The notes: generated from the letters alone by a model not told the origin. Shown: positions 9,932-56,273, numbered from the stretch's first letter. The stretch is DNA of 64,000 nt from Actinobacteria bacterium Ga0077560 (GCA_001464275.1 LNFL01000071.1:32894-96893); one strand, 5' to 3'. Translations and numbers: made by a program.

Positions 9932-10252
9932 CTACGCGGCCTTCTGCGCGCTCGTCGGCATGGGGGCGATGTGGGACGCCCGGAAGCTGATGCCGTGTCG
10001 GTCCTCCATGGACCACGGCACCGCGACCAGCTCGGTGACTCGCACCGGCTGGCCGACGACAACGCCCTTCGGTTCCCCCGAGACCTTCACGGGCCAGATC
10101 TGGGCACCCTCACTGCCGAGCGCCACCAGGTCGATCGCGTAGATCGGCTCGCCGTTGGCGTCTGCCTTGGGGCGCTTGGTCTCGAAGTCGATGACGGCCT
10201 CGACCTTGCCGGCCACCAGGGTTACTGATCCCGTGTCGATGGGCAGTCTCAT
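9932..10252 (-). CDS. Conserved-looking AICE hypothetical protein (106 aa)
   Basis: GGGAGG lies 7 nt before the ATG (MRLPIDTG). It is the first gene of the transfer operon and divergent from the GntR gene. No family recognised. Confidence 0.55.
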   Translation of the reverse strand: MRLPIDTGSVTLVAGKVEAVIDFETKRPKADANGEPIYAIDLVALGSEGAQIWPVKVSGEPKGVVVGQPVRVTELVAVPWSMEDRHGISFRASHIAPMPTSAQKAA

Positions 10253-10283
10253 CGGTATGCCTCCCACTCGCATGGACGGATCG

Positions 10284-10329
10284 TGGTACGGACCACGTGT
10301 TCGGCGACCTTAGGATATGGTCCGTACCA
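10284..10329. promoter_or_regulatory. Inverted repeat TGGTACGGACCA / TGGTCCGTACCA in the divergent korSA-tra promoter region (candidate GntR operator)
   Basis: The 12-bp arms at 10284-10295 and 10318-10329 are exact reverse complements. Each contains the GT-N-AC core typical of GntR operators. TAGGAT (10311-10316) is a possible -10. Confidence 0.45.
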
Positions 10330-11036: not shown

Positions 11037-11404
11037 ACCCCGACGAGCCCCTTCGCACCAAGGACCTTGCCAAGGAAGATCCGGCCCCGATGGAGGACAC
11101 CCTCGCCGGCTACCAGTGGCTTCCGAGGATGATCGACAAGGCCCGCGCCAGCCGCGCCGGGACGCTGGGCCAGTACTTCCGATATCCCTGCCCCATCGAC
11201 CAGGAGGCGCTGGCACGCATTGGGCTCGACTCTGAGCAGTTCGCGGAAGTTGCAGACTGTGCCACTACCGCGAATGACGTTCTGGAGTCGCTTGCTGCTC
11301 ATGGAGCCCGATCCGCCCAAGAGGCGGCGTTTGACCCGATCGAGTTGAATCGCCGGCTCCATGAGCCGCCGCTCGACTCACCGGAAGTTGGTGGTGGGTC
11401 CTAG
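11033..11404 (+). CDS. DUF5069-like protein
   Basis: Its GTG overlaps the GntR stop (GTGA at 11033-11036). LAGYQWLPRMIDKARA...YFRYPCPID resembles the DUF5069 signature. Confidence 0.55.
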   Translation: MNPDEPLRTKDLAKEDPAPMEDTLAGYQWLPRMIDKARASRAGTLGQYFRYPCPIDQEALARIGLDSEQFAEVADCATTANDVLESLAAHGARSAQEAAFDPIELNRRLHEPPLDSPEVGGGS

Positions 11405-11479
11405 ACGGACTAAACCTCCGTTGACTCGTCGCCGATAGTCGGTTACTGGTACGGTTTCAGTATTGGTTACTGAGGTGCG

Positions 11480-12286
11480 ATGACCCCGACGACGACCTAC
11501 CCCAATCCTCCTGTGCGGATCGCGGCCTTCGAGGTCCGGTTCCCGCCCGTCGACGCGCTGGCTTCGGAGGCCGCTGTTCGGCCGCTCCATCGCGAGCTCC
11601 GGACGACGTTCCCCTTCTTTGAACCGTTCCAAGTCCCCTTGGGGCTCCAAATCCAGCCCGATGGGGTGGTTCACGAAGTTGCTAGACGGGTCCGCCTCTC
11701 GTCCCGTACTCGGCGGACGGTGGTCAGCATTGGCGCCGACATCGCGATCATCGAGACGAGCGAGTACCGAAGTTTCGAGGAACTAAGGGCCATGGTCTGG
11801 GACCTGATGGGTCGAATCCAAGGGCTAGACGAGATCCTCGGGACGTCAAGGGTGGGCCTGCGCTACGTGAACGAGATCCGTATTCCCCAAGTCGGCGACG
11901 ATCCGCTCGGTTGGCCCCCCTACATCAGTGAGGCACTCGTCGCTCCGATGCGGCTGTCGAGCAAGCCTCTTCAGATCATGCAGGGGGCCGTCGTGTACCG
12001 GCCAGAGGAGACACGTGGCGTAGTCCTGAGATTCGGGGCGCTAAAGGGCAGAAGCGTGGACCTCGGTGGTCCGCTGCGGGTCCCAGACCTTGGGGATGGA
12101 CCATTCTTCCTCCTCGATATCGATAGCTACTGGGAGAATCCGCCGGACGAGCTTCCTGAATTCAGCCCTCAAGGAGTTGTGGAGGTTCTCGACCGTCTTC
12201 ACAACGCTGCGCAGGACGTGTTCGAGGCATCCATTACGGACAAGGCGCGTGGGCAGTTCGGTGCGCCCGGAGCAATCGGGAGGTGA
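11480..12286 (+). CDS. TIGR04255-like uncharacterised protein (268 aa)
   Basis: The N-terminus YPNPPVRIAAFEVRFPP matches my recollection of the TIGR04255 family start. GAGG precedes the ATG. First gene of a three-gene block. Confidence 0.6.
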   Translation: MTPTTTYPNPPVRIAAFEVRFPPVDALASEAAVRPLHRELRTTFPFFEPFQVPLGLQIQPDGVVHEVARRVRLSSRTRRTVVSIGADIAIIETSEYRSFEELRAMVWDLMGRIQGLDEILGTSRVGLRYVNEIRIPQVGDDPLGWPPYISEALVAPMRLSSKPLQIMQGAVVYRPEETRGVVLRFGALKGRSVDLGGPLRVPDLGDGPFFLLDIDSYWENPPDELPEFSPQGVVEVLDRLHNAAQDVFEASITDKARGQFGAPGAIGR

Positions 12287-12289
12287 ACG

Positions 12290-12928
12290 ATGACGACAAG
12301 AGCTCCCTTCCCCACAGCTGGCGAGACGAAGACTGTGGTGGAGCCTCAGCTCCCCCATCAAACAGATGTCGTAGCGCTGAATCGCGACGCAGCTGGTCTA
12401 CGAGATGTCGTGTCGCTGCTGCACGCGCGATCCCAGCAGCTTCACGGCGACACCCAGCGAGCCGAACTCTCGGCGCTGACCAATGAACGGCTGAAAAGGG
12501 CGGTTGGCGACCTCCTAGACGAGCTGTCAATTGACCACGGTATGGCCTGGTCTCATATCGCCCGCCTCGTGGGCGTCAGCGTGCCCGCCCTGCGCAAGTG
12601 GCGTCAGGGATCTGCCCCTGATCCTGAGAATCGGCGGCGATTGGCGGGTCTCTCAGCGTTCCTCGAACTGCTTGCGCGGTTCCCGGTTGAAGAGCCTTCA
12701 GGGTGGCTGGAAGCACGCCTCACCGACGAATCCACCCTGACCGGTCTCGACGTCTACTCGACGCCAGGGGGGGCGGTTGGGTTGCTCGAGTACGCCGGCC
12801 GACGATGCTCAGCCGAAGGCCTCTTGGACGCGCAGGTTCCGGACTGGAGAGCAACATCCGCACCTGACCCGCGCTTGCGAATCGTCGAAACGGACGATGG
12901 AGGCAGGTCGCTGGTTCTCGAGGGTTAG
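12290..12928 (+). CDS. Xre-type HTH protein with antitoxin-like (DUF2384-reminiscent) C-terminal region
   Basis: The ATG is 3 nt after the upstream stop, with GGGAGG inside the upstream gene's end. HTH is WSHIARLVGVSVPALRKWRQG. The C-terminus reads LTGLDVYSTPGGAVGLLEYAGR. Confidence 0.6.
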   Translation: MTTRAPFPTAGETKTVVEPQLPHQTDVVALNRDAAGLRDVVSLLHARSQQLHGDTQRAELSALTNERLKRAVGDLLDELSIDHGMAWSHIARLVGVSVPALRKWRQGSAPDPENRRRLAGLSAFLELLARFPVEEPSGWLEARLTDESTLTGLDVYSTPGGAVGLLEYAGRRCSAEGLLDAQVPDWRATSAPDPRLRIVETDDGGRSLVLEG

Positions 12929-12942
12929 CCAGGGTTCCCGGG

Positions 12943-13653
12943 ATGTTGGCCGCGCCGGATGGAGGGGTGACAAGCATCTACCTCGCCCGCGGCGACGAGG
13001 TGGATTCGTTCCGGCCTCTCCTGACCGGCGACATCTTCAGCGACACGGAGATTCCAGGCGTCGATACCGATACGGGACTCTCTATGGTCCTCGATCATCC
13101 ATGCTCGATGCGCCGGGGCGTGACCCTTGCCGGACACCTGGTCATGGCAAGGGTCATTTCGCGTCCGGACCTCCCGCGACCGGCGAAGTGGCCGACCGAC
13201 GGACTTTGGGATCTCCTTCCGTTGCCGGAACTCGACAGTTCCGGAGAGCGCCGCGCCGCAGCCCTTGATCAGATTGGCCGCGTGCCTTCGGCATCGCTCG
13301 ACCTGGGTCGACGGGTCGCATGCCTCTCTGACCAAGGCATTGTCCTTCTGATTCAGCGCCAGATCCATCGCCTCAGTCGCTTCGTAGCGCCTCTTGCTGA
13401 TCTCTACGAGGTCTGCGCCCCTGTTCTGACCGAAGCGGATCTGCTGACGGAATGGAATGCGGAGCTCGTGCCTCATCGCCAGAAGGCGACCGGCGCAGCG
13501 TTGGCAGAGGCGATGGTCGCCGAGACCGGCCATTTCGAGGCGTTTCTGGCCGGTGATGAGCCATCCCTACGCGAACAACTCAAGACCGATCACCTGCGGA
13601 GCGGAGTCCGGAGGGCCGTCCGGCTGGAGATCCGAGAACGACGAGCACGTTGA
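12943..13653 (+). CDS. Orphan hypothetical protein (236 aa), last gene before attR
   Basis: ATG ORF 14 nt after the HTH gene, with codon bias like its neighbours. No recognisable catalytic motif. Confidence 0.5.
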   Translation: MLAAPDGGVTSIYLARGDEVDSFRPLLTGDIFSDTEIPGVDTDTGLSMVLDHPCSMRRGVTLAGHLVMARVISRPDLPRPAKWPTDGLWDLLPLPELDSSGERRAAALDQIGRVPSASLDLGRRVACLSDQGIVLLIQRQIHRLSRFVAPLADLYEVCAPVLTEADLLTEWNAELVPHRQKATGAALAEAMVAETGHFEAFLAGDEPSLREQLKTDHLRSGVRRAVRLEIRERRAR

Positions 13654-13786
13654 CGGCATGTCCACTTCCATCTGCGGTTCCATCCCGGTTCCGCGAACGG
13701 GCGCATTCGGGGCGTCCATGACAACTCCTTGTCGCAGCCCAGGCAATGCAGAAGGGCAGCAGTTGCGGTATTCGCCCAGCCTGTTC

Positions 13787-13832
13787 GAAGCCGACGCGGG
13801 GACTCGAACCCCGGACCCCATCATTACGAGTG
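13787..13832. repeat. att site (tRNA-proximal copy), 46 bp
   Basis: Identical to 1472-1517. It covers the tRNA-Thr from the anticodon stem to 2 nt past the 3' end. Confidence 0.9.
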
Positions 13833-13861
13833 ATGTGCTCTACCAGCTGAGCTACGTCGGC
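13789..13861 (-). tRNA. tRNA-Thr (anticodon CGU), 73 nt, CCA not encoded
   Basis: The reverse complement GCCGACGTAGCTCAGCTGGTAGAGCACATCACTCGTAATGATGGGGTCCGGGGTTCGAGTCCCCGCGTCGGCT folds by hand into a cloverleaf. Stems are 7-bp acceptor, 4-bp D, 5-bp anticodon and 5-bp T, with a GTTCGAGTC T-loop and a CTCGTAA anticodon loop. Confidence 0.95.
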
Positions 13862-14014
13862 CCGCCGGGGGACGTGCCCCGGGCCCGGGAAGGATAGCGC
13901 CGAGACGCGGGGAGTCGAGGGGTCCGCCGTTCGTGACCCAGGGTGACGTTGTGCCCGATCCCGCCGGGGCCGTAGGTTGGCCCCGTGAGCGTGCCCCACC
14001 GAGAGAGGTCCCAT

Positions 14015-40456: not shown

Positions 40457-41272
40457 TCACCGTTGGCAGGCGGGGCACCAGTACGTGGTGCGGTTCGCGT
40501 CGCCCTGGCCTCGTGAGCGCACCGGCGTTCCGCACCGACGGCACGGCAGCCCCCGGCGGCCGTAGACCCACTTCTCTCCCGACGGGCGCAGCCCGGGCGG
40601 CCGTCCCGGCCGGTCGTAGGTGCTGATGCGGCCGCGGTCGCGCACCCCGCGCTCCAGCAGCTGGGCGGCGAGCTCCCCCACGCGGGCGGCCTCCTGCTCG
40701 GTCAGCGACCCCACCGCGCGCCAGGGGTCGATCCCCGCAAGGAACAGGCTCTCGCTCTTGTAGACGTTGCCGATCCCCGAGACCACGCGCTGGTCCATCA
40801 GCGCGTCGCCCACCTGCCGGCCCGGGTCGCAGCGGCGCAGGGCGGCCGCGGTGTCGGCCCCGGGGTCGGTGGCGACCGCCAGCAGATCCTTGCCCAGCCG
40901 CTGCACCGCGATGGGCAGCGGCTCGCCGGGTTCCAGCAGGCGCACGTTGGGGCACCGGTACAGCGCCGCGGTGAGCCCCTGCACCGACAGTCCCAGGAAC
41001 AGGCCGTGCGGCGACACCGTCCGACCGTCGGGCACCAGTCGCCACACGCCGCTCATCATCAGGTGCGAGTGCAGCACCCGCCCGCTGGCGAACCGCAGCA
41101 GGTGGTGCTTGCCGCGGGCCTCCGCGCCCTCCACCGTGTCGCCCTCCAGGCGCTCGGGGATGCGCTGGGTGGCGATCATCGGCTCCTCGCTCCACACCCG
41201 CACCAGGGGCCGGCCCGCCAGCAGCCGGTTCCAGTCCCGGGCGTTGCGGTGGCTCACCTGGCCCTCAGGCAC
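40457..41272 (-). CDS. nei: Fpg/Nei-family DNA glycosylase (endonuclease VIII-like, Nei2 type)
   Basis: N-terminal MPEG, an H2TH region (GIGNVYKSESLF) and a C-terminal zinc finger CRRCGTPV...YWCPACQ. Overlaps the lhr stop by 8 nt. Confidence 0.88.
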   Translation of the reverse strand: MPEGQVSHRNARDWNRLLAGRPLVRVWSEEPMIATQRIPERLEGDTVEGAEARGKHHLLRFASGRVLHSHLMMSGVWRLVPDGRTVSPHGLFLGLSVQGLTAALYRCPNVRLLEPGEPLPIAVQRLGKDLLAVATDPGADTAAALRRCDPGRQVGDALMDQRVVSGIGNVYKSESLFLAGIDPWRAVGSLTEQEAARVGELAAQLLERGVRDRGRISTYDRPGRPPGLRPSGEKWVYGRRGLPCRRCGTPVRSRGQGDANRTTYWCPACQR

Positions 41273-44200
41273 GCAGCAGCATCCCCTTCAGGTCAACGCG
41301 GAAACCCGCGGCGCCGAGCAGGTCGGCCCACACGGTCCCGGTCACCGGCTCACCGTCCACCCGCTCCACCAGCAGCCTGCGCGACCGGTCGGCCCGCACC
41401 CAGGCGGCCAGGGCCTCCAGCGCCGGGCCGGTCCACTCCGGGTCGGGGTCGCGGAACGTGGTGAGCGACCGGCCGCCACGCTCCACGTGGAGGGCCGGGG
41501 AGCCGTCCAGCAGCACCAGCTGGGCGCCGTGCACCCGCGACGGTGCCCGCCGGCCGCGGCTCTGCGGCCAGGCCAGAGCGGCGCCGTACGGCTGGGCGGG
41601 GTCCGCCGCGCCGATCACCACGGCGTCCACCGGCTCACCGGGCCGCCGGTCGCGCAGGTCCCGCAGCCGCTCGATGGCACCGGGCAGGGCGAACTGGGCG
41701 CCGCCCAGGCCCTCCACGAAGTACCCGCGGCGGCACATGCCGACGGTCTCCAGGTCGCCCAGCGCCTGGTACACCGCGCTGAAGCCGCCCGCCACGCCCT
41801 CGCCCAGCACGGCCCCGCGGGTCACCACGCCGTGGCGCTCCAGCAGCAGCTCGGCCTGCGCGCGGCGCCGTTCGGCCGGCGGGGCCGCCCCGCGGGTGAA
41901 CAGGCGCTCCGCCCGCGACCAGCGCCCCGCGACGGCGGCCATCCCGCCCCGGGCGGGGGCGCGGCGCATCGACAGACGGGACCCGCCCGGACGCGCCGCC
42001 CGCGCCGCCAGAGCGGGCAGGCGCCGCGGCGCCCGGAGCGGCGCCCACAGGTCGTTGGTGGCCTCGCCCGCCCACACCAGCCCCCACAGCGCGGCGAAGA
42101 CCTCCTCGCGCGGCGCCTCGACACTCTCCAGCAGGTCGTCCCAGAACAGCGCCCCGCCGGACAGGGCCTCGCGCACGGCGGTCACCACCGGGTCGTCGGC
42201 CGGCGGATCCGCGGCGCCCGAGGGCGGCCCCAGCAGCGGCGCGTCGTCGCGCAGGTACAGCGCCACCCGCCCCTGGCCGGCGCCGGTCCACACCACCTCT
42301 CCGGCGCCGGCCAGCTGGTCGAGCCAGGCGGGGCTGTAGGCGCCCAGGCGGCGGGGCAGCGTCTCGGTCTCCCACTGGGCGGCCGGCAGGGCGATGCCCT
42401 GCAGCCGGGCGATCACGTCGCGCAGCCCGTCGGCGCCGGGGGCGGCGGGCGGCCGGTCGATGCCGTGCCAGGCGGGCAGGAACCGGCCCATCGCCGCGGG
42501 GTCCGCCGGCTCGACCTCCTTGCGCAGCACCGCCAGGCTCGCCCGCCGCAGACGCCGCAGGACCTCTGCGTCGCACCACTCCCGGCCGCTGCCGCCCGGG
42601 CGCATCTCGCCCCGCACCACCGCGCCCGAGCCCTCCAGCCCGGCCAGCGCCGCCTCCGCCGCTCCGCGGGAGATGCCGAGGCGATCGGCGAGATCCCCGG
42701 CGGGGAACGGCCCGTGCGTGCGGGCGTACCGGGCCACCAACCCGGTCAGCGCATCCTCCACCGGCTCCAGGAACACGGCCGGCAGGCCCGAGGGCGGCAT
42801 CACCCCCAGGCCGTCGCGGTAGCGCGCGGCATCCTCGGCGGCGATCCACCGCTCCTCGCCGGCCAGGCGGATGCGGGCGGCACGGCGCTCGCCGGCCAGC
42901 GCGTCGAGCCACGCGGCGGCCTCAGCGGGCGCGGTGATGCGGGCCCGCACCTCGGTCTCGGTGAGGTCGCCCACCCGGCGCAGCAGGTCGTGCAGGCCGT
43001 CGGCGCTCCGGGCGCGGGCGCGCTCGGACCGGCCCTGCAGGTCGTCCTCCACCTGCTCCAGGGCGTTCGGGTCGATGAGCTCCCGCAGCTCGTCGCGGCC
43101 CAGCAGCTCGCGCAGCAGGTCCCGGTCGAGTGCCAGCGCCTGCGCCCGGCGCTCGGCCACCGGCGCGTCGCCCTCGTACATGTAGGTCTGCACGTACTCG
43201 AACAGCAGGCTGGAGGCGAACGGGGAGGGGGACTGGGTCTCCACCTCCACCACCCCCACCTCCCGGGAGCGGATCCGCATGAGCAGATCGCGCAGCGCCG
43301 GCAGGTCGAACCAGTCGTTCAGGCACTCCCGGTAGGTCTCCAGGATCACCGGGAAGCTGCCGTACTTGCGGGCCACCTGCAGCAGCGAGGACGCCCGCAG
43401 CCGCTGCTGCCACAGCGGCGTGCGCTGGCCGGGCCGGCGACGGGGGATGAGCAGCGCCCGCGCCGCGTTCTCGCGGAAGCGCGCGCCGAACAGGGCGGTG
43501 CCGCCCAGCTCGCCCAGGACCAGCTCGTCCAGCTCGTCGGGGTCGATCAGGGCCACCTCGGCCGACGGGGCCGTCTCGGCCTCCGGCAGGTGGATGGCGA
43601 TGCCGTCGTCGGTCCAGATGCCGTGGGCCTCCTGGCCCATGGTCTCCCGGATGCGCACGCCCAGTGCCATCGCCCAGGGGGCGTGCACGCGGGCGCCGTA
43701 CGGGCTCAGCACGCACAGCCGCCAGTCCCCGATCTCGTCGCGGAAGCGCTCCACCACCACGGCCCGGTCGCTGGGCACCGTGCCGGTGGCGGCGGCCTGG
43801 TCGTGCAGGTACTGCACCAGGTTCGTGGCGGCGCGCTCGTCGAAGCGGCTGTCCTTCCGCAGGCGCGCGATCGCGGTGTCGCGGTTGGCGCTCACCAGCT
43901 CCCGCGCGGTGCGCCCCACCGCGGCGCCCAGCTCGGCGGGGCGGCCCACGCCCTCACCGCGCCAGAAGGGCACGGCGCCGGGAACGCCGGGGGCGGGGGA
44001 CACCAGCACCCGGTCGCGGGTGATCTCCTCGATGCGCCACGTGGAGGCGCCCAGCAGGAACGTCTGGCCCGCCCGGGCCTCGTAGACCATCTCCTCGTCC
44101 AGCTCGCCCACGCGGCTGCTGCCGTCGGCCAGGTACACGCCGTAGAGGCCACGGTCGGGGATGGTGCCGGCGTTCTGGACCGCCAGCTGCCGTGCGCCCG

Positions 44201-45725
44201 GGCGGGCGCGCACGGTGCCGGCCACGCGGTCCCACACCACCCGGGGCCGCAGCTCGGCGAACTCGTCGGACGGGTACCGGCCGGCGAGCATGTCCAGCAC
44301 GTTCTCCAGCTGCTCGCGGCTCAGCTCGGCGAACGGGTACGCGCCGCGGGCCACCTCCAGCAGCTCCTCCACCGTCCACGAGCCGTCCACGCTGATGGCC
44401 ACCAGCTGCTGGGCGAGCACGTCCAGGGGCAGGCGGGGGATGGTGGTGTGCTCGATCTCCCCGTCGCGCATGCGTTGCACCACCGCGGCGCACTCCAGCA
44501 GGTCCCCGCGGAACTTCGGGAAGATGCGCCCGCGGCTGGCGGCGCCCACCGAGTGCCCGGCCCGGCCCACCCGCTGGATCCCACGGGCGACGCTGCGCGG
44601 GCTCTCCACCTGGATCACCAGGTCCACGGCGCCCATGTCGATGCCCAGCTCCAGGCTGGAGGTGGCCACCAGCGCGGGGATGCGCCCGGCCTTCAGGTCC
44701 TCTTCGATGATGAGCCGCTGCTCGCGGGCCACGCTGCCGTGGTGGGCGCGGGCGATCTCCTCGCCGGCCAGCTCGTTCAGTCGCAGGGCCAGACGCTCGG
44801 CGAGCCGCCGGTTGTTCACGAAGATGAGCGTGCTGGAGTGGGCCTTCACCAGCTCCACCAGCTTGGGGTACATGGCCGGCCAGATCGATCGCCGCGTGGA
44901 CTCCATGCCGGCCACGGCGTCGGCGGCCTCCGCCAGCGGCACGGGCCCGTCGGACCCCAGCTCGGACATGTCCTCGACGGGGACGATCACCTCGAGGTCG
45001 AGCTCCTTGCCGCCGGAGGCGTCCACGACCTCCACCTCGCGGGGCCTGCCCTCGGCGTCCTGCCCGCCCAGGAACCGGGCGATCTCGCTGAGCGGCCGCT
45101 GGGTGGCCGACAGGCCGATGCGCTGCACCGTGCCGCCGTCGCCCGCCACCAGCCGCTCCAGCCGCTCCAGCGACAGGGCCAGGTGCGCGCCGCGCTTGGT
45201 GGCGGCCACCGCGTGGATCTCGTCGATGATCACCGTGCGGACGCCGGTGAGCACCTCCTGCGCCCGGCTGGTGAGCATGAGGTACAGGCTCTCGGGCGTG
45301 GTGATGAGCACGTCCGGGGGACGGCGGATCATCCGCTGGCGGTCCACCTGCGGGGTGTCCCCGGTGCGCACCGCCACCGAGATCTCCGGCAGCGTCAGCC
45401 CCGCGCGGTTCGCCGCGTCGGCCAGGCCGGCCAGCGGCCCCGACAGGTTGCGCTCCACGTCGTAGTTCAGGGCCTTCAGCGGTGAGACGTAGAGAATGCG
45501 GTCCGGGGTGCGGCCCTCGAGTTTCGCGGCCATGAGCCGGTCGAGCGCCCACAGGAACGCCGTGAGCGTCTTGCCCGACCCGGTGGGGGCGAGGATGAGC
45601 GTGTGGTGCCCGGCGGCGATGGCCGGCCACCCGCCGCGCTGGGCCGCGGTGGGCTCCGCGAACGCCCTGCCGAACCACTCCGCCGTGAGCGGATGGAAAC
45701 GTCCGAGGGCGGGATCGGGAGCCAC
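41265..45725 (-). CDS. lhr: ATP-dependent helicase Lhr (large DEAH superfamily-2 helicase)
   Basis: Walker A ILAPTGSGKT, motif II DEIH and HHGSVAREQR. The ~1486-aa length with a long C-terminal domain is typical of Lhr. GTG start at 45725 (VAPDPALGRFHPL); the longer ORF prefix has no helicase content. Confidence 0.9.
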   Translation of the reverse strand: MAPDPALGRFHPLTAEWFGRAFAEPTAAQRGGWPAIAAGHHTLILAPTGSGKTLTAFLWALDRLMAAKLEGRTPDRILYVSPLKALNYDVERNLSGPLAGLADAANRAGLTLPEISVAVRTGDTPQVDRQRMIRRPPDVLITTPESLYLMLTSRAQEVLTGVRTVIIDEIHAVAATKRGAHLALSLERLERLVAGDGGTVQRIGLSATQRPLSEIARFLGGQDAEGRPREVEVVDASGGKELDLEVIVPVEDMSELGSDGPVPLAEAADAVAGMESTRRSIWPAMYPKLVELVKAHSSTLIFVNNRRLAERLALRLNELAGEEIARAHHGSVAREQRLIIEEDLKAGRIPALVATSSLELGIDMGAVDLVIQVESPRSVARGIQRVGRAGHSVGAASRGRIFPKFRGDLLECAAVVQRMRDGEIEHTTIPRLPLDVLAQQLVAISVDGSWTVEELLEVARGAYPFAELSREQLENVLDMLAGRYPSDEFAELRPRVVWDRVAGTVRARPGARQLAVQNAGTIPDRGLYGVYLADGSSRVGELDEEMVYEARAGQTFLLGASTWRIEEITRDRVLVSPAPGVPGAVPFWRGEGVGRPAELGAAVGRTARELVSANRDTAIARLRKDSRFDERAATNLVQYLHDQAAATGTVPSDRAVVVERFRDEIGDWRLCVLSPYGARVHAPWAMALGVRIRETMGQEAHGIWTDDGIAIHLPEAETAPSAEVALIDPDELDELVLGELGGTALFGARFRENAARALLIPRRRPGQRTPLWQQRLRASSLLQVARKYGSFPVILETYRECLNDWFDLPALRDLLMRIRSREVGVVEVETQSPSPFASSLLFEYVQTYMYEGDAPVAERRAQALALDRDLLRELLGRDELRELIDPNALEQVEDDLQGRSERARARSADGLHDLLRRVGDLTETEVRARITAPAEAAAWLDALAGERRAARIRLAGEERWIAAEDAARYRDGLGVMPPSGLPAVFLEPVEDALTGLVARYARTHGPFPAGDLADRLGISRGAAEAALAGLEGSGAVVRGEMRPGGSGREWCDAEVLRRLRRASLAVLRKEVEPADPAAMGRFLPAWHGIDRPPAAPGADGLRDVIARLQGIALPAAQWETETLPRRLGAYSPAWLDQLAGAGEVVWTGAGQGRVALYLRDDAPLLGPPSGAADPPADDPVVTAVREALSGGALFWDDLLESVEAPREEVFAALWGLVWAGEATNDLWAPLRAPRRLPALAARAARPGGSRLSMRRAPARGGMAAVAGRWSRAERLFTRGAAPPAERRRAQAELLLERHGVVTRGAVLGEGVAGGFSAVYQALGDLETVGMCRRGYFVEGLGGAQFALPGAIERLRDLRDRRPGEPVDAVVIGAADPAQPYGAALAWPQSRGRRAPSRVHGAQLVLLDGSPALHVERGGRSLTTFRDPDPEWTGPALEALAAWVRADRSRRLLVERVDGEPVTGTVWADLLGAAGFRVDLKGMLLRA

Positions 45726-45807
45726 CCGTCGATCGTAGAGCCGCCATCGGCGTCCGGCCCCGACTCCGGGCCTCAAGTGCGGGGGCGATGCCGCCGAGTG
45801 GGATGAC

Positions 45808-46662
45808 GTGCAGCCAATCGAGGAAATCGGGATCCAGGCGACCCTCGCGCGGATCCGCGAGATCACCGCGCCGGCGGTCGCGCCGGCCACGGCGTCCGGC
45901 GCCGCCCAGAGCGGCCTCTCGTCCTCGGCGTTCGCCCAGCAGCTGGCAACCGCCCAGGGCACGGGCTTCGGCGACCTGTCGACCGGCCTGCTGCCCGCGC
46001 AATACGCGGCGCTCGGCGGCAACAACCCCACCGCGACCGCCACGGCGCTCGCGGCCCTGCGCGGCACCGGCAGCCCGCTGGCCGCCCAGTACGCGAACCC
46101 GGCGCTCGCCGGCGTGCCGTCGCTCACCACCGCCCTCACCGGCCCGCAGCCCGTCGCGGGTGCGCCGGCCGGCACCACCACCGGCACGGCCGGTCCGCAG
46201 GGCCAGTTCATCGCGCGCCTGGCCGCGCAGGAGCTGGGCGTGCGCGAGGACCCGCCCGGGTCGAACAACGGCACCCGGATCGCCGAGTACCGCACGGCCA
46301 CCGCCAACGCCGGCGTCGGCCCGTGGTGCAGCTACTTCACCTCGTGGGTCGCGGCCCAGGCCGGCGTCCCCATCGGCCCCACCGGCCAGGGCGAGGGCTG
46401 GGTGCCCAACGTGGAGTCGTGGGCCAAGCAGACCGGCCGGTGGATGCCCGCCGGATCCGAGACCCCGCCGCAGGCCGGCGACCTGGTGGTGTTCGACCGC
46501 AACGGGGACGGCCTCACCGACCACATCGGCGTGGTGAGCGGCGTTCGCCCGGACGGCGGGATCAGCACCGTGGAGGGCAACTCCAGCGATGCCGTGTCGG
46601 CCCGGACGTACGGGCGCGGTGAATGGGCCGGGATCGTCCGGCTGTTGCCGCCCGGCGCCTGA
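45808..46662 (+). CDS. CHAP-domain cell-wall hydrolase (amidase/endopeptidase)
   Basis: C-terminal CHAP pattern GPWCSYFTSWV...GDLVVFDRNGDGLTDHIGVV...EGN. Ala/Gly/Pro/Thr-rich N-terminal half. GTG start. Confidence 0.75.
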   Translation: MQPIEEIGIQATLARIREITAPAVAPATASGAAQSGLSSSAFAQQLATAQGTGFGDLSTGLLPAQYAALGGNNPTATATALAALRGTGSPLAAQYANPALAGVPSLTTALTGPQPVAGAPAGTTTGTAGPQGQFIARLAAQELGVREDPPGSNNGTRIAEYRTATANAGVGPWCSYFTSWVAAQAGVPIGPTGQGEGWVPNVESWAKQTGRWMPAGSETPPQAGDLVVFDRNGDGLTDHIGVVSGVRPDGGISTVEGNSSDAVSARTYGRGEWAGIVRLLPPGA

Positions 46663-49757: not shown

Positions 49758-51926
49758 ATGGCCAACACCACCCGCAAGATCCGCCGGAACCGTCACCTCG
49801 CTGCACTGCTGGGCGCCGGCTTCGCGGCGGTCGCCCTGACCGGCTCCGCAATGGCCACCACCCCGGTCGGAGACCAGGTCCGCCTCTCGGTCACCGGCAC
49901 CGATGGGGATGCCACGCGCGACGCGATCGCGCCCGCGATGGCCCACAACCCGCGGACCGGCCAGCACCTGGTCGTGTGGAGCCGGATCGGCGCGCCGGGC
50001 GTCGGCGCCGTCGGCCGCCTCATCAACGCCGACGGCACACCGGCGGGCCCCGAGTTCCCGATCTCCTCCGGAGGGGTCTCGGTCGCCGCCGCCGTCGCGT
50101 ACAACACCCGCGCCAACGAGTTCCTGGTGCTCCTGGGCAAGGCGGCGCCCGGGGGCGACATCGAGGCGTTCGTGCGCCGGGTGAGCGCCGCCGGCGTTCC
50201 GCTCGGCGCGGCCGAGGAGCGGATCTCGGCCATGGGGCCCGACGGGAACCCGAACTTCGTCGTGGACGCCGCGGCGATCGCCTACAACGGCGTCCACAAC
50301 GAGTACCTCGCCGCCTGGGTCGCCGATGACAACCGGGGCCCGCTCGTGGATGACGAGAAGGAGGTCTTCGTCCAGCGGCTCGCGGCCGACGGCAGCCAGA
50401 TCGGCACCGACGACCAGCGCATCTCGAACCTCGGACCCAACGGGAACCCGGCGTACCAGGCGCGGCACGTCGCCGTCGCCTACAACGAGATCCGCGACGA
50501 GTACCTGGTGGCCTTCACCGGTGACGACAACCGGGGCGGCGTGGTCGACGGCGAGGAGGAGGCGTTCGTCCAGCGGGTCTCCTGGGACGGGCTCCAGGTG
50601 GGCACCGACGACCTCCGGATCTCGACGATGGGCGGCACCGGCGACCCGCTGTACTCGGCCCTGTTCCCGACCGTGGTGCACAACCCGGCCACCGACGAGT
50701 ACCAGGTGGCGTGGCTGGGCGATGACACCCGGGGCGGCGGCGTCGATGGCGAGTTCGAGGTCTTCGGCCAGCGGCTCTCCTCCGACGGCACGCAGGTGGG
50801 CACCGACGACCAGCGCATCTCCGACATGGGGCCCAACGGCAACGCCGCGTACGACGCGGACGCCCCGAAGCTCGCGTACAACGCCCGCTCCAACGAATAC
50901 CTCGTGGCATGGGCCGGTGACGACGACACCGCGCCGCTGGTCGACAACAAGACCGAGGTGCACGTCCAGCGTCTCTCCGCGGCCGGCGTCGAGCTCGACG
51001 GGAACGACGTCCGCGTCTCCAACATGGAGGCGGCGGCCGACACGACGGCCCGCTCGGACCGCCCGGCGGTCGCCTACGACGCGAACGCCAACCAGTACCT
51101 GGTGACATGGGAGGGAGCCTCCACGGTCTCCCCCCTGGTGGCCGGCGAGTTCGAGATCTACGCGCGCCGGTTCGGGGCGGGGACGCCGGTGACCGTGGCG
51201 TCCCAGTGCAAGGTGCTGCCGCCGCAGGCGCCGCCTCCGGCCGGGGACCCCAGCAAGATCACGCTCAGCGTCGACCAGCTGCTGATCAACCAGCGGATCG
51301 ATCAGGCGGCGATCCGGCGGGCCAACGGCGTGCAGGCGTGGCTGGACGCCGGGGTCGAGTCGCGCGACCTGTGTCAGGCGGCCCTTGGCGCCGAGGAGCT
51401 GTACCCGGGTTCGGCCGGGGGCTACACGGCGGTGCCGGCGACCTACGGCGCGCCGGATCCGCGGCCGGTGCAGATCCCGGCGGCGACCCCCGGTGACCCC
51501 TCGAAGGTGACGCTGACGATCGATCAGCTGTTGATCAACCAGCGGATCAGCCAGGCGGCGATCCGCCGTCTGAACGCCCTGAAGGCGCGGCTGGATGCCG
51601 GCCTGACCAGCGGGGACATCGACGACGGGGCGGTCGGCCGGGCGCAGCTGAAGGCCGGGACCAGCGTCCTGTACGTGCCGGTGGTGGCGACGCCGCCCGC
51701 CGCGAGCGTGACCACGATCGCGCCGCCCTCCCCGGGTGACCCGAGCAAGGTGACGCTGACCGTGAACCAGCTGCTGATCAACCAGCGCATCAGCCAGGCG
51801 GCGGTCAAGCGGGCCAACGACCTGATCTACCGCCTGGGCCAGGGGATCGGCCCGGAGGAGGTCAGGAACGGCACCCTCACCACCGCGGACCTGGCGCCGG
51901 GCCTCCCGATCAGCACGGCCCCGTAG
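49758..51926 (+). CDS. Secreted repeat protein, paralog 1: 7 x ~66-aa propeller-like repeats + 3 x C-terminal helical modules
   Basis: AAGGAG lies 8 nt before the ATG, followed by a signal peptide. Repeat consensus: AYN...EYLVAW.GDD..G..VD.E.EVFVQRL..DG.Q.GTDD.RIS..GPNGN. The three C-terminal units each start GDPSK(I/V)TL(S/T). Confidence 0.8.
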   Translation: MANTTRKIRRNRHLAALLGAGFAAVALTGSAMATTPVGDQVRLSVTGTDGDATRDAIAPAMAHNPRTGQHLVVWSRIGAPGVGAVGRLINADGTPAGPEFPISSGGVSVAAAVAYNTRANEFLVLLGKAAPGGDIEAFVRRVSAAGVPLGAAEERISAMGPDGNPNFVVDAAAIAYNGVHNEYLAAWVADDNRGPLVDDEKEVFVQRLAADGSQIGTDDQRISNLGPNGNPAYQARHVAVAYNEIRDEYLVAFTGDDNRGGVVDGEEEAFVQRVSWDGLQVGTDDLRISTMGGTGDPLYSALFPTVVHNPATDEYQVAWLGDDTRGGGVDGEFEVFGQRLSSDGTQVGTDDQRISDMGPNGNAAYDADAPKLAYNARSNEYLVAWAGDDDTAPLVDNKTEVHVQRLSAAGVELDGNDVRVSNMEAAADTTARSDRPAVAYDANANQYLVTWEGASTVSPLVAGEFEIYARRFGAGTPVTVASQCKVLPPQAPPPAGDPSKITLSVDQLLINQRIDQAAIRRANGVQAWLDAGVESRDLCQAALGAEELYPGSAGGYTAVPATYGAPDPRPVQIPAATPGDPSKVTLTIDQLLINQRISQAAIRRLNALKARLDAGLTSGDIDDGAVGRAQLKAGTSVLYVPVVATPPAASVTTIAPPSPGDPSKVTLTVNQLLINQRISQAAVKRANDLIYRLGQGIGPEEVRNGTLTTADLAPGLPISTAP

Positions 51927-51936
51927 GACACCGGAC

Positions 51937-51966
51937 CGGGGTCCCGGCCACGGGGCCGGGACCCCG
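51937..51966 (+). terminator. GC hairpin 11 nt after paralog 1 stop
   Basis: cggggtcccggcc-acgg-ggccgggaccccg forms a perfect 13-bp stem with a 4-nt loop. There is no U-tract, as is common in high-GC actinobacteria. Confidence 0.6.
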
Positions 51967-52164
51967 CCGACGGGAGGACCGGCCCACCGGCCCACCCGCC
52001 GTGGCGGACGGGTGCGGGGATCCACACATGCCCGTTTCGGGAGCTGCCTCGTCGCACGCCCTCGAGCGGAAGACTGGTCCTTTGAGCGGTATGCGGTTGC
52101 GCTTCCGGCGGACAGGATCCCCGGAGGCGCACGACCGACGCACCGACGATCCAGCGAGCCGCAC

Positions 52165-54129
52165 ATGAGACGACGGGCCCTGATCTGCACCTGCCTGGCG
52201 ATTGCGGGCGTCGCGACGCCCGCCGCGGCGCTCGCGCCGGCCGGGCCCATCCGCCAGATCGGGGCCGAGTCGACGGAGCCCGGCCTGGCGAAGGCGCTCA
52301 GCGTCGGGGCGCCGGCCGTGGCGTGGAGCCCCGGGGCGAAGCGGTTCCTCGTGACCTGGCGCTACGACGGACACATCGACGAGGAGCCCTTCACACGGGG
52401 ACGGTTCGTCGATGCCGACGGGCTGCCGATGGGCGAGCCCTTCCGCGTGGCCGACGGTGCCGGGGGCGCGCTGGTGCACAACCCGGCGACCGGTGGGTAC
52501 GGGCTCATCGTCGGGGGCGACCTCGTCCACCTCGACACCGACGGCCGCGTGCTCGCCCGCTACCGCTTCTCCAGCCTGTCACCCGGGCAACGCCCGACGG
52601 AGTACGGCGAGCCCGTGCTCGCCGTGGACCCGGTCAGCGGGTCCTACATCGTCGCGTGGCTCTACAACCCGCAACCCGACGAGCGCAAGGTCCTGGTGAG
52701 CCTCATCCGGCCGGGCCGGGGCGTGATCGACACCCTCCATGCCGTCCTGCCCTACGGCCTCGGGGCGGAGGTCTCCTCGTCCCCGTCCCTGGCATGGAAC
52801 CCGGCCGACGGGACGTTCCGGTTGTCCTGGAGCGACGCCGGCGGGGTGAAGCTGCGCCGCCTCCTGCCCGACGGCCGGCCCGCCGGGGAGGCGGTGGAGG
52901 TGGCGCCGGGAGCCGCCTTCGGCGACACCGCCGTCACGACGCTCCGCGACGGCGGGTCGATGGTCGTGTGGTCGGCGTCCGTCCCCGACCCTGCGTTGCA
53001 GATCGACGGCTTCGCCCGCCGGCTCCTGCCGGACGCCACCCCGGGTGGTGGCGCCCTCAGGGTCATGCACGTCACCAGGCCCGACGGCTTCCCCGTGATG
53101 GTGCGGTCGGTGGCGGTCGCGGACATCGGCCGGGACGGCGAGACCCTGGCGGTGATGGACGTCGAGCGCCGGGGCCAGGAGGTGTACGGCCAGGTGCTCG
53201 GTCCGGACGGCTCCCCGGTGGGCGATGCCCCCATGGTCCTCTCCGGGGACCCGCTCACGGTGGTGGGCGACCGCCACGGTGCGGTGGCCGCCGCGCCCGG
53301 CGCGGGCCGGTACCTGGTGGCATGGACCAGCGCGCGGCGAATGGAGCCCCTGGAGTTCCGGGTGAGCGTGCGGGTGCTGGCCGCCGATCCGGTCGGCGTC
53401 CCGGCGGCGGCGCCGGTGTGTCGCACCCTCCGCGCGCCCGCGTCCGGCACGGGCGCGAGCGGCCGGATCACGCTGACGGCCGGGCAGGCGCGGATCACGA
53501 TGCGCATCGCCCGTGCGGCCCTTCGTCGTGCGGAGGCCGCCGCACGGTGGCTCGACGCCGGGATCCAGGGGCGGGATCTGTGCCGGCACGCCGTGGGCCT
53601 GGACGAGTTCCGCCCGGGGACGACCGCGTGGCCGGCCGAGGGCGCCGGTGCGGCCCACGAGCCCGAGCCCCGGCCCGTCGAGATCGCGGCGGCGGCCCCG
53701 GAACCCCGGCGCGTGCGCCTGGATGCGGGTCGCCTCACGCTCGACCAGGAAACCGCCCGCCGGGCCATCGCGCTCGTGGCCGCGCTCGAGCGGCGGCTCG
53801 ACGCCGGGCTCACGGGTGGCGACATCGCCGACGGCGCGGTCGATCGCGCCCAGCTCGCGCCCGGGTTCCGGCCGGTGGGAACACCCTCCGGGCCGGTGGA
53901 TCCCGCCACGCCCGTTCCGCGCGCGGTGTCCGTCGGGGCGGCGCCGGCCACGGTACGGGTGACCCTCGCGCAGATGCGCACCAACCGGCGCATCGCGCGG
54001 GCGGCCCTTCGGCGGGCCGACGCCCTGATCGACCGCCTGGAGGACGGGATCGGTCCCGAGGAGATCCGCGACGGCACCCTCACCTCGGCCGACCTGGCCC
54101 CCGGGCTGGCCCTCAGCACCGCCCCGTAG
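52165..54129 (+). CDS. Secreted repeat protein, paralog 2
   Basis: Signal peptide MRRRALICTCLAIAGVATPAAALA. The degenerate propeller-like region has strands ending in W (VAWSP, LVTW, IVAWL, LSWSD, VVWSA, LVAWT). Same triple C-terminal module and terminal motif as its neighbours. Confidence 0.8.
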   Translation: MRRRALICTCLAIAGVATPAAALAPAGPIRQIGAESTEPGLAKALSVGAPAVAWSPGAKRFLVTWRYDGHIDEEPFTRGRFVDADGLPMGEPFRVADGAGGALVHNPATGGYGLIVGGDLVHLDTDGRVLARYRFSSLSPGQRPTEYGEPVLAVDPVSGSYIVAWLYNPQPDERKVLVSLIRPGRGVIDTLHAVLPYGLGAEVSSSPSLAWNPADGTFRLSWSDAGGVKLRRLLPDGRPAGEAVEVAPGAAFGDTAVTTLRDGGSMVVWSASVPDPALQIDGFARRLLPDATPGGGALRVMHVTRPDGFPVMVRSVAVADIGRDGETLAVMDVERRGQEVYGQVLGPDGSPVGDAPMVLSGDPLTVVGDRHGAVAAAPGAGRYLVAWTSARRMEPLEFRVSVRVLAADPVGVPAAAPVCRTLRAPASGTGASGRITLTAGQARITMRIARAALRRAEAAARWLDAGIQGRDLCRHAVGLDEFRPGTTAWPAEGAGAAHEPEPRPVEIAAAAPEPRRVRLDAGRLTLDQETARRAIALVAALERRLDAGLTGGDIADGAVDRAQLAPGFRPVGTPSGPVDPATPVPRAVSVGAAPATVRVTLAQMRTNRRIARAALRRADALIDRLEDGIGPEEIRDGTLTSADLAPGLALSTAP

Positions 54130-54242
54130 ATCGGTCGGGGCGGAACGGGTCATCGCCCGGTTCCCGGTCGCCCCCGCGCGGGACAGGATGGAGGTGAGCG
54201 GGCACCGGAGCCCGCCACCTCCCACGGGGACGACCTCACGTG

Positions 54243-56231
54243 ATGCGACGTGTCGGCATCTGCATGCTTCTCGGAGCCGCGGTGCTCGCCGCGCCGGCGG
54301 CGGCACTCACTCCGGTCGGCGGCATTCAGGACATCGGGGTCGAGTCGACGCGCCCGGGGCTCGAGGACGCGCTGCACGTCGGCGCTCCGGGCGTCGCTTG
54401 GGACCCGCGTGCGAAGCGGTTTCTCGTGACCTGGAACCACCGTGGCCACCCCGAGCAGGAGTCGTTCACCACGGGCAGGTTCGTCGACGTGGACGGGACC
54501 CCGGTGGGTCCCGCGTTCCGGGTGGCCGATGGCGCGGGGGCGGAGCTGGTCCACAACGACGTGACCCGGGAGTTCGCGCTGATCGCCGGCGGGGATCTTG
54601 TGCGCCTCGACGGCGACGGGCACGTCCTGGGTCGCGACCGGTTCTCGGGCGTCGGGAATCCTGATTTGGGCGCGGGGCCACCGTCGGTCGTGGTTGACGG
54701 ACGCACGGGCGCCTATCTCGTCGTGTGGCTCCAGCGGTCCGGCCCCCTCGAGCCGCTCCAACTGTTCTCCCGGGCCGTTCGGCCGGGATCCGGCGGCGGG
54801 GAGCCCACGTTCCCGGTCGAGCCCATCCCCGCCGCCACCGCGCTTGATGAGCCTCGGAACCCGGACCTCGCCTGGAACGCCTCCGGCGGGGGGTTCGTCG
54901 TCGTCTGGCGATCGGCGACCGGCATGAGTGCGCGTCGGCTGCGCGCCGACGGCGATCCCGTGGGAGACGTCATCACCGTCTCGGTGCAGGAGCGCAGAAC
55001 CGACGCGGCGATCGCCCCGTTGCCCGGTGCGCCGGGATTCCTGGTGGCCTGGTCCGCCGCGGGCGCCGAACCCGAGGGGCAGGTCGACGTCTTCGCTCGG
55101 CGGATCCTCCCGGACGGGCGTGTGATCCCCGGTGACGATCACCGCATCACGCACGTCCTGTCGCCCAATGGCGTGCGGGCGGTCGCGGGGAACGTCTCCG
55201 CCGCCGTCGCCGAGCGGGCCGGTGAGGTGCTCGTGGTGGCCGATGTCGATCGGATCCACGGGATACCCTCGAGCGTGGAGGAGGCGTTCGCCCAGGTGGT
55301 CGGTGCCGACGGCTCCGAGACCGGCCCCGACGATCTTCAGCTCTCAGGCGATGTGTCCGTGGGCGATCTGGGAGACAAGCACAGCTCGCTGGCGTATGCG
55401 CCGGCGGCGAATCGCTACCTGGTGGCATGGACGGCCGCGGTGAGCCGCATGGAGCCGCGGGAGTTCACCGTCCGTGGGCGGGTCCTGGCGGCGGGAGCTC
55501 CCGTGGTGGCCGCCACGGCGCCCGTGTGCGCCGCGCCGTCCGCGGGCCCGGCGGGGCGGGCCGTGACCGGTCGCGTCGCGCTCACCGCCGCGCAGGCCCG
55601 CATCACGATGCGGATCGCACGCGCCGCGTTGCGCCGGGCGCAGGCTGCGGCCCGCTGGCTCGACTCCGGGGTCGAGGCCCGTGACCTCTGCCAGGGGGGC
55701 ATCGGTGCCGGGAAGTTCCGGGCCGGGACCGTACCGTCGATCGGGGATCCGGTGACCCGCACGGCTCCGGGACCGCGTCCGGTGACCATCGCCGAAGCCG
55801 CACCGGAACCGCGTCGTCTCCGGCTCGATGCCCGGCGGTTGGCGCTCGACCAGGCAACAGCCCGCGACGCGATCGCGCTGGTGGCGGCACTTGAGCGTCG
55901 CCTCGAAACCGGCCTCGCCGGGGGCGACCTCGCCGACGGGGCGATCGGCGTGGTGCATCTCGTCCCGGGGTATCGGCCGTGGTCCGTGCCGGGCGGGCCC
56001 GCGGACCCGCCCACGGTCGTCCCGCGGGCGGTGTCGTCGCAGGCGGCGAGGCGGATCACGCTGAGCGCCACCCAGATGCGCATCAACCGGCGCATCGCGC
56101 TGGCCGCACTGCGGCGGGCGGACGCCCTGATCGACCGCCTGGAGGACGGCATCGGCCCCGATGAGATCCGGGACGGCACGCTCACGGCCGCCGATCTCGC
56201 GCCCGGGGTGGCGCTCAGCACGGCCCCGTGA
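54243..56231 (+). CDS. Secreted repeat protein, paralog 3
   Basis: Signal peptide MRRVGICMLLGAAVLAAPAAALT. The N-terminal ~110 aa align closely with paralog 2. The C-terminal ~60 aa are nearly identical to paralog 2. Confidence 0.8.
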   Translation: MRRVGICMLLGAAVLAAPAAALTPVGGIQDIGVESTRPGLEDALHVGAPGVAWDPRAKRFLVTWNHRGHPEQESFTTGRFVDVDGTPVGPAFRVADGAGAELVHNDVTREFALIAGGDLVRLDGDGHVLGRDRFSGVGNPDLGAGPPSVVVDGRTGAYLVVWLQRSGPLEPLQLFSRAVRPGSGGGEPTFPVEPIPAATALDEPRNPDLAWNASGGGFVVVWRSATGMSARRLRADGDPVGDVITVSVQERRTDAAIAPLPGAPGFLVAWSAAGAEPEGQVDVFARRILPDGRVIPGDDHRITHVLSPNGVRAVAGNVSAAVAERAGEVLVVADVDRIHGIPSSVEEAFAQVVGADGSETGPDDLQLSGDVSVGDLGDKHSSLAYAPAANRYLVAWTAAVSRMEPREFTVRGRVLAAGAPVVAATAPVCAAPSAGPAGRAVTGRVALTAAQARITMRIARAALRRAQAAARWLDSGVEARDLCQGGIGAGKFRAGTVPSIGDPVTRTAPGPRPVTIAEAAPEPRRLRLDARRLALDQATARDAIALVAALERRLETGLAGGDLADGAIGVVHLVPGYRPWSVPGGPADPPTVVPRAVSSQAARRITLSATQMRINRRIALAALRRADALIDRLEDGIGPDEIRDGTLTAADLAPGVALSTAP

Positions 56232-56237
56232 GAAATC

Positions 56238-56273
56238 TCACCCCCACCCGCCGCGGACGGCGGGTGGGGGTGA
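56238..56273 (+). terminator. GC hairpin 7 nt after paralog 3 stop
   Basis: tcacccccacccgccg-cgga-cggcgggtgggggtga forms a perfect 16-bp stem with a 4-nt loop. Confidence 0.65.

Follow-up and report, generated by a model that had tools for sequence, protein, structure and literature searches.

Tandem paralogous genes for surface proteins that share an anchor are well known from the sap-eag cluster of Bacillus anthracis and the cwp cluster of Clostridioides difficile. Here we describe a cluster of three tandem paralogs, encoding proteins P1, P2, and P3, in a 64,000-nucleotide stretch of DNA (the whole of which we call the window) from Actinobacteria bacterium Ga0077560 (GCA_001464275.1 LNFL01000071.1:32894-96893). 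Each protein is composed of a signal peptide, a predicted beta-propeller, and a C-terminal tripartite domain (CTD), which is most plausibly a new form of the terminal surface-anchor principle represented by the surface layer homology (SLH), CWB2, and WxL domains, the C-terminal sorting domain of the type IX secretion system (T9SS), and the dockerin. The cluster resembles sap-eag and cwp (the latter with CWB2 triplets) in its adjacent paralogs and in the pairing of a conserved tripartite anchor region with a faster-evolving, presumably exposed region, and copy number varies here; the domains themselves, however, are unrelated.

The SLH triplet (PF00395), as in Sap of B. anthracis and SpaA of Paenibacillus alvei (PMC6081394), resembles the CTD in being built of three tandem helical repeats that form a pseudo-trimeric core within one chain. 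Both modules occupy a protein terminus, occur in many different exoproteins per genome, and have conserved Arg-containing motifs. They differ in that SLH repeats are about 55 amino acids (aa) long and usually lie at the N terminus, whereas those of the CTD are about 80 aa long and lie at the C terminus, and in that the CTD has long Pro-rich return segments and a GLTxGDxxDG motif but no TRAE motif. The role of the SLH triplet is noncovalent anchoring; we infer the same role for the CTD by analogy and suggest, with moderate confidence, that the CTD works like the SLH triplet without being a member of that family. No SLH domain was matched by Pfam in P1 to P3 or in either of the sets of CTD carriers (95 and 72 proteins) covered by our Pfam scans, and no SLH structure, with its three-pronged spindle fold, was retrieved by Foldseek at an E value of ≤10. 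Two further modules, the T9SS C-terminal sorting domain (Por_Secre_tail, PF18962) and the type I dockerin (PF00404), also serve diverse secreted proteins as C-terminal address tags specific to certain lineages. The former is a beta-sandwich of about 75 aa for outer-membrane translocation in diderms, and the latter is an EF-hand-like Ca2+ duplicate of about 70 aa, whereas the CTD of P1 to P3 is helical, tripartite, about 240 aa long, and situated on actinobacterial proteins that already possess signal peptides.

The reading that we prefer, and to which we would give an even chance, is that P1 to P3 are exported propeller proteins of a member of the Thermoleophilia related to the Miltoncostaeaceae and that they are retained at the cell surface, held or addressed there by the CTD. 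The N-terminal signal peptide would take each protein across the membrane, the seven-bladed propeller would be the working (binding) module on display, and the CTD would hold the protein at, or address it to, the cell envelope. Each of the three CTD repeats would contribute one long helix to the core as well as the GLTxGDxxDG turn, and the Gln, Asn, and Arg residues of the helices would bind an envelope component of repeating and probably anionic nature, much as SLH triplets bind secondary cell wall polymer. The signature of an address or anchor module lies in the terminal position of the CTD, its promiscuous association with extracellular partners, its many copies per genome, and its restriction to one lineage; and because signal peptides already explain translocation, envelope retention or docking would be its most economical role. 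The wider proposal is more tentative and falls somewhat short of an even chance. It holds that the CTD is a previously undescribed fold, in which GLTxGDxxDG turns cap the three long helices of one chain, and that the Thermoleophilia use it to display proteins in a way of their own, with dozens of exoproteins in each genome tied to an envelope component peculiar to the lineage. If true, a barely cultivated class of actinobacteria would have arrived independently at the principle by which SLH domains bind secondary cell wall polymer.

The main clue to the role of the CTD, which the initial annotation of the window (made from the sequence itself) had missed, is that this domain is a mobile module that recurs, within this lineage, on many extracellular proteins that are otherwise unrelated. 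A word-indexed search returned 254 CTD proteins, many of which have other N-terminal regions, and a stand-alone form of about 297 aa consists of a signal peptide, a linker, and the domain. The family is small: an exhaustive HMMER search of 1.84 billion representative sequences yielded only 605 CTD clusters, 284 of them at an E value of ≤1e-30. In 249 of 255 full-length matches, no more than 10 residues separate the end of the domain from the C terminus, and nearly all full-length carriers have an N terminus that reads as a signal peptide. Its Pfam partner domains include FG-GAP, Big_5, PD40, He_PIG, PKD, NHL, lysyl oxidase, SGL, and P-domain, together with subtilase, trypsin, polysaccharide lyase, GH26, GH115_C, fn3, VWA, GDSL lipase, and OmpA. 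Scanning GTDB with one genome per species gave 193 CTD relatives, and the best 80, which we examined, are almost all from Thermoleophilia or Miltoncostaeaceae metagenome-assembled genomes (MAGs), with several to at least 10 copies per genome; one MAG alone accounts for at least 10 CTD loci among these best 80. CTD loci also occur in bins labeled Dehalococcoidia and Gemmatimonadota (L039 and L076; contigs of 17 kb and 5.8 kb), and one of these two samples also gave a Thermoleophilia MAG. The shortness of the contigs suggests that such out-of-lineage occurrences are probably the result of misbinning.

In P1, the CTD occupies aa 482 to 722 (51201-51923 on the plus strand), as delimited by motif conservation and by an AlphaFold2 (AF2) model of the domain alone. 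Its roughly 240 aa form three modules of about 80 aa, each consisting, in order, of a GDPSKVTLT lead-in, a helix of 26 to 27 residues (residues 505 to 530, 588 to 614, and 669 to 694 in P1), a GLTxGDIxDGxV...L..G turn motif, and a Pro-rich segment. The helices carry the motif QLLINQRIxQAAxRRxNAL, in which Gln, Asn, and Arg are near-invariant. Three helical modules followed by a common tail had been recognized in the initial annotation, and both exist, except that the tail (GIGPEEVRNGTLT.ADLAPG or, in longer form, GIGPEEVRNGTLTTADLAPG) is the turn motif occurring for the third time rather than an element of its own. Modeled alone on a 95-sequence alignment, the three modules pack into one compact domain (predicted local distance difference test [pLDDT] score of 95.1 and predicted template modeling [pTM] score of 0.90); its core would be a parallel, pseudo-threefold three-helix bundle and the domain a single-chain pseudo-trimer. 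Foldseek found no match to this model (best E values of 4.9 in the PDB and 7.7 in BFVD), the CTD profile matched no PDB sequence at an E value of ≤10, and no model in Pfam, NCBIfam, or PHROGs corresponds to the domain. The CTD is an undescribed, lineage-restricted module without a detectable structural relative. Kinship with phage fibers, which the I.DG.V....L..G motif had led us to suspect, is unsupported by any Foldseek match in the PDB or BFVD.

Each of the mature proteins has two Cys residues, both in module 1 of the CTD (C484 and C539 in P1); since these are the only two and sit at positions conserved in the family, they suggest a disulfide, as would fit a position outside the cytoplasm. 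The CTD is neutral to basic (isoelectric point [pI] of 8 to 11.3), in contrast to the acidic propeller, and it is better conserved than the passenger, with 88% versus 59% identity in the closest GTDB ortholog and 67% versus 46% between P2 and P3. The earlier view that the C-terminal part has been kept constant holds in this relative sense only: in P2, P3, and the P2 ortholog, the helix motif takes a common variant form (QARITMRIARAALRR) and is lost from module 2, which suggests that their anchor has codiverged with the propeller.

The same range of partners could be accounted for if the CTD were a docking or oligomerization module (either dockerin-like or a stalk) that assembles extracellular proteins on a scaffold or into multimers, an explanation that we view as the main rival but as unlikely. 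Hydrolases and proteases are equally typical partners of dockerins, and some homologous propellers elsewhere have precomputed dockerin-family matches. In two carriers, the CTD is found together with an OmpA-family peptidoglycan-binding domain, which hints that these proteins could tether peptidoglycan to the CTD target and that the target is not peptidoglycan itself; fusions of this kind would make sense as wall-to-scaffold tethers. The stand-alone CTD proteins, as members of a conserved gene trio, might supply the scaffold or a partner set; together with the OmpA fusions, they favor the docking role somewhat. Yet no cohesin-like partner was identified, the three helices fold confidently in one chain (AF2 pTM of 0.90) into a bundle that needs no further chains, and the conserved residues are polar or basic, unlike the hydrophobic patch that is usual in protein docking. 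In the trio, a protein of about 150 aa and unknown identity and a DUF6636 protein (about 139 aa) accompany the CTD protein (297 to 299 aa), and the genes adjoin a DinB/IMS polymerase gene in two other Thermoleophilia MAGs (L086 6922-8900 and L087 6934-8894). This trio might thus include partners or a scaffold of the CTD; the context of the stand-alone genes at these two loci offered no informative functional linkage.

P1 is encoded by a 722-aa open reading frame (ORF; 49758-51926 on the plus strand), and its propeller extends over aa 35 to 481 (49860-51200), as judged from repeat alignment, the AF2 model, Foldseek, and composition. Residues 56 to 481 comprise seven repeats of about 66 aa, the first short and the last truncated, and internal repeats 3 to 5 are 55 to 58% identical to one another. 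The AF2 model, built on a 55-sequence alignment (pLDDT of 87 and pTM of 0.84, with most of the propeller at a pLDDT of >90), contains 28 strands in seven groups of four, the N-terminal strand (residues 36 to 42) completing the three-stranded last blade (residues 432 to 473) as a velcro closure. The regular repeats and the seven-bladed propeller proposed in the initial annotation are thus borne out by repeat alignment and a confident model, which support P1 as a predicted seven-bladed, velcro-closed beta-propeller. This region is acidic (pI of 4.3; net charge of -34), and its loops are long and rich in Asp and Gly, both between strands B and C (GDDxxxPLVxxE) and between strands D and A (SxMGPDGDxxY).

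When compared with the PDB by Foldseek, P1 retrieves many propellers with a probability of 1.0 but only 8 to 13% identity, the best matches being CylK (7roo; E value of 2e-12), the PL42 lyase FoRham1 (7esl), and GH145 (5mvh and 5muk), with sialidases and GH43 also among them. Neither a phmmer search with P1 nor a profile of the full-length alignment matched any PDB chain sequence at an E value of ≤10, and Pfam, NCBIfam, and PHROGs gave nothing significant for the three whole proteins or for their separated domains. These empty scans agree with the original statement that the proteins could not be assigned to a family, and none of the domains gave a match to a well-characterized one. The P1 propeller belongs to a very familiar class of folds, of which it is a new and unnamed member.

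Propellers of the CylK/virginiamycin B lyase class (PDB 7roo and 7ron; PMC8916777) share with P1 the seven four-stranded blades and the long internal loops; in CylK, these loops are unusually long, and a Ca2+ site is present at each blade junction (PMC8916777). Because the Asp- and Gly-rich loops and the acidity of P1 recall these junctions, it is reasonable to suppose that P1 may have blade-bridging Ca2+ sites as well. CylK and P1 are, however, only 12% identical, with no sequence or profile relationship, and P1 is without the N-terminal Ca2+-binding beta-roll domain that caps the CylK propeller and forms the CylK active site: it passes straight from the signal peptide into the propeller and falls outside the CylK/BrtB group. 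Similarly, the likeness to PL42 and GH145, whose characteristic catalytic residues share one propeller face, is at the level of fold only, with 8 to 12% identity.

It is nonetheless from these matches that one could argue for surface-displayed enzymes, either polysaccharide lyases or glycosidases like PL42 and GH145 or lyases or alkylases of the Vgb/CylK type. CylK, FoRham1, GH145, sialidases, and GH43 are the best fold matches, other CTD carriers are hydrolases, and there is a precomputed match to PF22847, flagged as "faint" and not reproduced by hmmscan at an E value of 10. We regard an enzymatic role as quite improbable: identity to the matched structures is 8 to 13%, with no sequence or profile match to any PDB chain; GH43 is five-bladed, with a catalytic Asp/Glu/Asp triad, whereas the P1 model has seven blades; and CylK needs its N-terminal Ca2+ beta-roll domain, which is absent from P1 (PMC8916777). 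Moreover, among 28 full-length P1-type proteins, all positions conserved at ≥90% are in phase with the blade repeat, that is, structural, and none is blade specific. This pattern speaks against one asymmetric active site and fits a structural or multivalent binding platform. Under our preferred reading of a displayed binding module, the P1 propeller would most likely be a Ca2+-stabilized, noncatalytic, and possibly multivalent platform for ligands. As for the PF22847 (Glyco_hydro_43_rel) label itself, hmmscan at an E value of ≤10 found it in neither P1 nor its homologs, and with seven blades modeled we rejected it.

The other two proteins show the propeller in degenerate form. P2 is 654 aa long when counted from its ATG (52165-54129 on the plus strand; the mechanical ORF begins further upstream, at a GTG) and comprises a signal peptide (aa 1 to 24, ending AALA|P), a degenerate propeller (aa ~25 to 415), and a variant CTD (aa ~416 to 654). 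P3, a 662-aa ORF (54243-56231 on the plus strand), has the same parts at aa 1 to 22 (AALT|P), ~23 to 425, and ~426 to 662. A hidden Markov model (HMM) of the blade, built from the P1 repeats, recognizes seven units in P1, five in P3, and one in P2, in line with the much greater degeneracy ascribed to the second and third paralogs. The loops of P2 and P3 are shortened, and the acidic motifs are absent. The P1 propeller aligns with P3 over 454 aa (27.5% identity; E value of 3e-23), and by homology to P1 the corresponding regions of P2 and P3 are likely to be propellers as well.

Outside this cluster, the 120 best homologs of the blade repeat come from Anaerolineales, Eisenbacteria, Planctomycetota, Bacteroidota, Gaiellaceae, and Thermoleophilia. 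Most of these have 14 to 15 blade-HMM matches, presumably representing two tandem propellers, and the seven-blade form is confined among them to Thermoleophilia proteins. Two homologs, from Bacteroidota and Eisenbacteria (P0004 and P0035), end in the T9SS sorting domain PF18962, which has no Pfam match in P1 to P3, and others have precomputed, not retested, dockerin-family matches at the C terminus; these tails occupy the position that the CTD takes in P1 to P3. The blade repeat represents an unnamed, very widespread extracellular family with 7- and 14-blade forms in at least six phyla.

All three N termini read as signal peptides in the translations, as had been stated at the outset. That of P1 (aa 1 to 34; 49758-49859 on the plus strand) has a basic n-region (RKIRRNRH), a hydrophobic core, and the end AMA|TT, and residues 1 to 30 are modeled by AF2 at a pLDDT of <50. 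The n-regions of P1 and its orthologs contain twin arginines (TRRF-type in the orthologs), and export could follow the Sec or possibly the Tat route. A lipoprotein signal in P2 and P3, considered because of a Cys at positions 7 to 10, was rejected: the Cys is too near the N terminus, and residues -3 to -1 form no lipobox. The proteins end in ...DLAPGLPISTAP (P1), ...LALSTAP (P2), and ...VALSTAP (P3), and no sortase (LPXTG/LAXTG) or exosortase-type signal is present, there being no hydrophobic segment and no basic tail at any of the three C termini. The LPISTAP tail itself is no sortase motif, as no transmembrane segment or basic tail comes after it and it varies across the family.

The three consecutive same-strand genes are not a product of misassembly. 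The identical P1 protein is present on 13 contigs, and four independent assemblies (a JGI drinking-water-treatment metagenome, an ENA and a Logan assembly of activated-carbon metagenomes, and the NCBI MAG GCA_022844305.1) all have these three genes, called at identical lengths (722, 654, and 662 aa) and flanked by the same neighbors. This recurrence, together with synteny in relatives, argues against an assembly artifact and confirms the gene lengths first reported. P2 and P3 are 54% identical over their full length (BLASTP E value of 7e-169), with 63.6% identity over the N-terminal 107 aa, which matches the close by-eye alignment of their first ~110 residues, and each is about 32% identical to P1 (E values of 1e-47 to 1e-59).

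At the syntenic site in the sister MAG STL-ACT42, bounded by a NUDIX gene and the EgtB/EgtD genes, there are four tandem paralogs (723, 718, 658, and 635 aa; L084 10001-18582): two are P1-like (61% and 58% identical to P1), one is a P2 ortholog (61%), and the fourth is divergent. A more distant genome has two tandem P1-like copies (729 and 722 aa; L085 7815-12169) in another gene context. These comparisons point to tandem duplication as the origin of the genes and to a family that expands and contracts, with three copies here and four in the sister genome. The initial idea of an expanded exported family accordingly stands, with three paralogs bearing signal peptides, a variable copy number, and no named family. 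The picture of two paralogs diverging at present does not: because P2 has its own 61% ortholog in the sister genome, the split between P1 and P2/P3 is older than these species, with P2 and P3 as an old degenerate sublineage. P2 and P3 are least alike in the central blades (36 to 44% identity), and their most similar regions are the first blade, the last blade, and the CTD. With the closest available orthologs only 61 to 68% identical and the paralogs 32 to 54%, synonymous sites are saturated; regions are compared here by amino acid identity, and the diversifying selection on the propeller face suggested in the initial annotation is conjectural at these distances.

The window has a G+C (GC) content of about 74%. 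The three genes range from 72 to 77% GC (72% for P1), and the 183-nucleotide leader upstream of P1 (49575-49757 on the plus strand) is at 61.7%, a measurement that upholds the lower-GC leader described earlier; it contains a ribosome-binding site (AAGGAG) 8 nucleotides before the ATG. No Rfam family was found in the leader, and a consensus scan of it gave no match to a sigma-70-type promoter. The GC-rich hairpins reported downstream of P1 and P3 are also present by RNA folding. The first (51932-51969 on the plus strand) has a 13-bp core stem without a T tract (-43 kcal/mol; z score of -2.9) and is likely a terminator; the second (56238-56273 on the plus strand) has a perfect 16-bp stem (-43.3 kcal/mol; z score of -5.3; none of 200 shuffled sequences equally stable) and is likely the terminator of a P2-P3 unit. 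RNA folding gave no significant hairpin 3' of P2 (z score of +1.9), and T-tract terminators were not found by consensus scan. Since hairpins follow P1 and P3 and none of significance follows P2, P1 looks monocistronic and P2 and P3 may form one transcription unit.

A leader of its own, a strong ribosome-binding site, and a separate terminator hairpin fit separate, possibly high expression of P1, as might be expected if P1, and perhaps P2 and P3, were subunits of an S-layer or sheath, with the propeller as lattice, the CTD as anchor, and the tandem paralogs as alternative subunits, comparable to sap and eag. An anchor combined with a variable exposed domain in tandem paralogs does resemble S-layer gene clusters such as sap/eag and C. 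difficile cwp. However, members of the propeller family in many phyla are 14-blade proteins that carry T9SS or dockerin tails, as would suit an extracellular module of general use better than a lattice protein, and the CTD is also present on enzymes that are no S-layer subunits; we therefore hold an S-layer role to be very improbable.

Several observations weigh against surface retention of P1 to P3 by the CTD. The CTD is linked to no known wall-binding domain by experiment or homology, as SLH, CWB2, LysM, and dockerin are unmatched by Pfam or by fold, and the OmpA-CTD carriers would make a second wall-binding domain redundant, such that the CTD may bind a nonwall target. In 3 of 255 carriers (P0313, P0316, and P0343), the CTD lies near the N terminus, right after a signal-like sequence, representing either a genuine alternative architecture or gene-call artifacts. 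Both the parallel arrangement of the helix bundle and the surface exposure of its conserved Arg, Gln, and Asn residues are deduced from repeat logic and secondary structure. A catalytic role of the propeller is also conceivable, as its best fold matches are enzymes. Finally, the genomic context of the propeller genes gave no functional hint at three loci, and a search of the literature on surface proteins of Miltoncostaea and Thermoleophilia returned nothing relevant.

Thermoleophilia, and especially Miltoncostaeaceae, occur widely in soils, sediments, and water-treatment systems and are known almost only from MAGs; to our knowledge, nothing is known of their cell-surface organization. A domain at the end of proteins as varied as proteases, glycosidases, lectin-like propellers, and Ig-like proteins would offer a direct handle on this surface proteome, in that proteins ending in the CTD could be predicted to be surface addressed. 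For structural studies and for the engineering of surface display, the CTD offers a candidate new fold for wall binding or docking, and the propeller repeat merits a family model of its own. What this locus adds is nothing dramatic: the familiar principle of a passenger with a terminal anchor would be extended by new parts.

The neighbors of the cluster are housekeeping genes (NUDIX and EgtB/EgtD). Directly 3' of P3 (56304-58693 on the plus strand) lie genes for an EgtB-like protein (DinB_2 plus FGE-sulfatase) and an EgtD-like methyltransferase (Methyltransf_33), an ergothioneine biosynthesis pair whose order is kept in relatives and which has no evident tie to surface proteins. Upstream are a large Lhr-type DEAD-box helicase gene (41265-46307 on the minus strand) and a gene for an exported CHAP-domain (peptidoglycan amidase/peptidase) protein (45808-46662 on the plus strand), followed by genes for ClpS and a thiamine pyrophosphate enzyme, in a gene order identical to that of the sister MAG. 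Elsewhere in the window, a stretch of about 4 kb (10001-14000) has a GC content of 63 to 67%, compared with about 74% in the remainder, and adjoins a tRNA gene (13789-13861 on the minus strand) that is the sole Rfam match of the window; this stretch could be an integrated element or merely an RNA-gene region.

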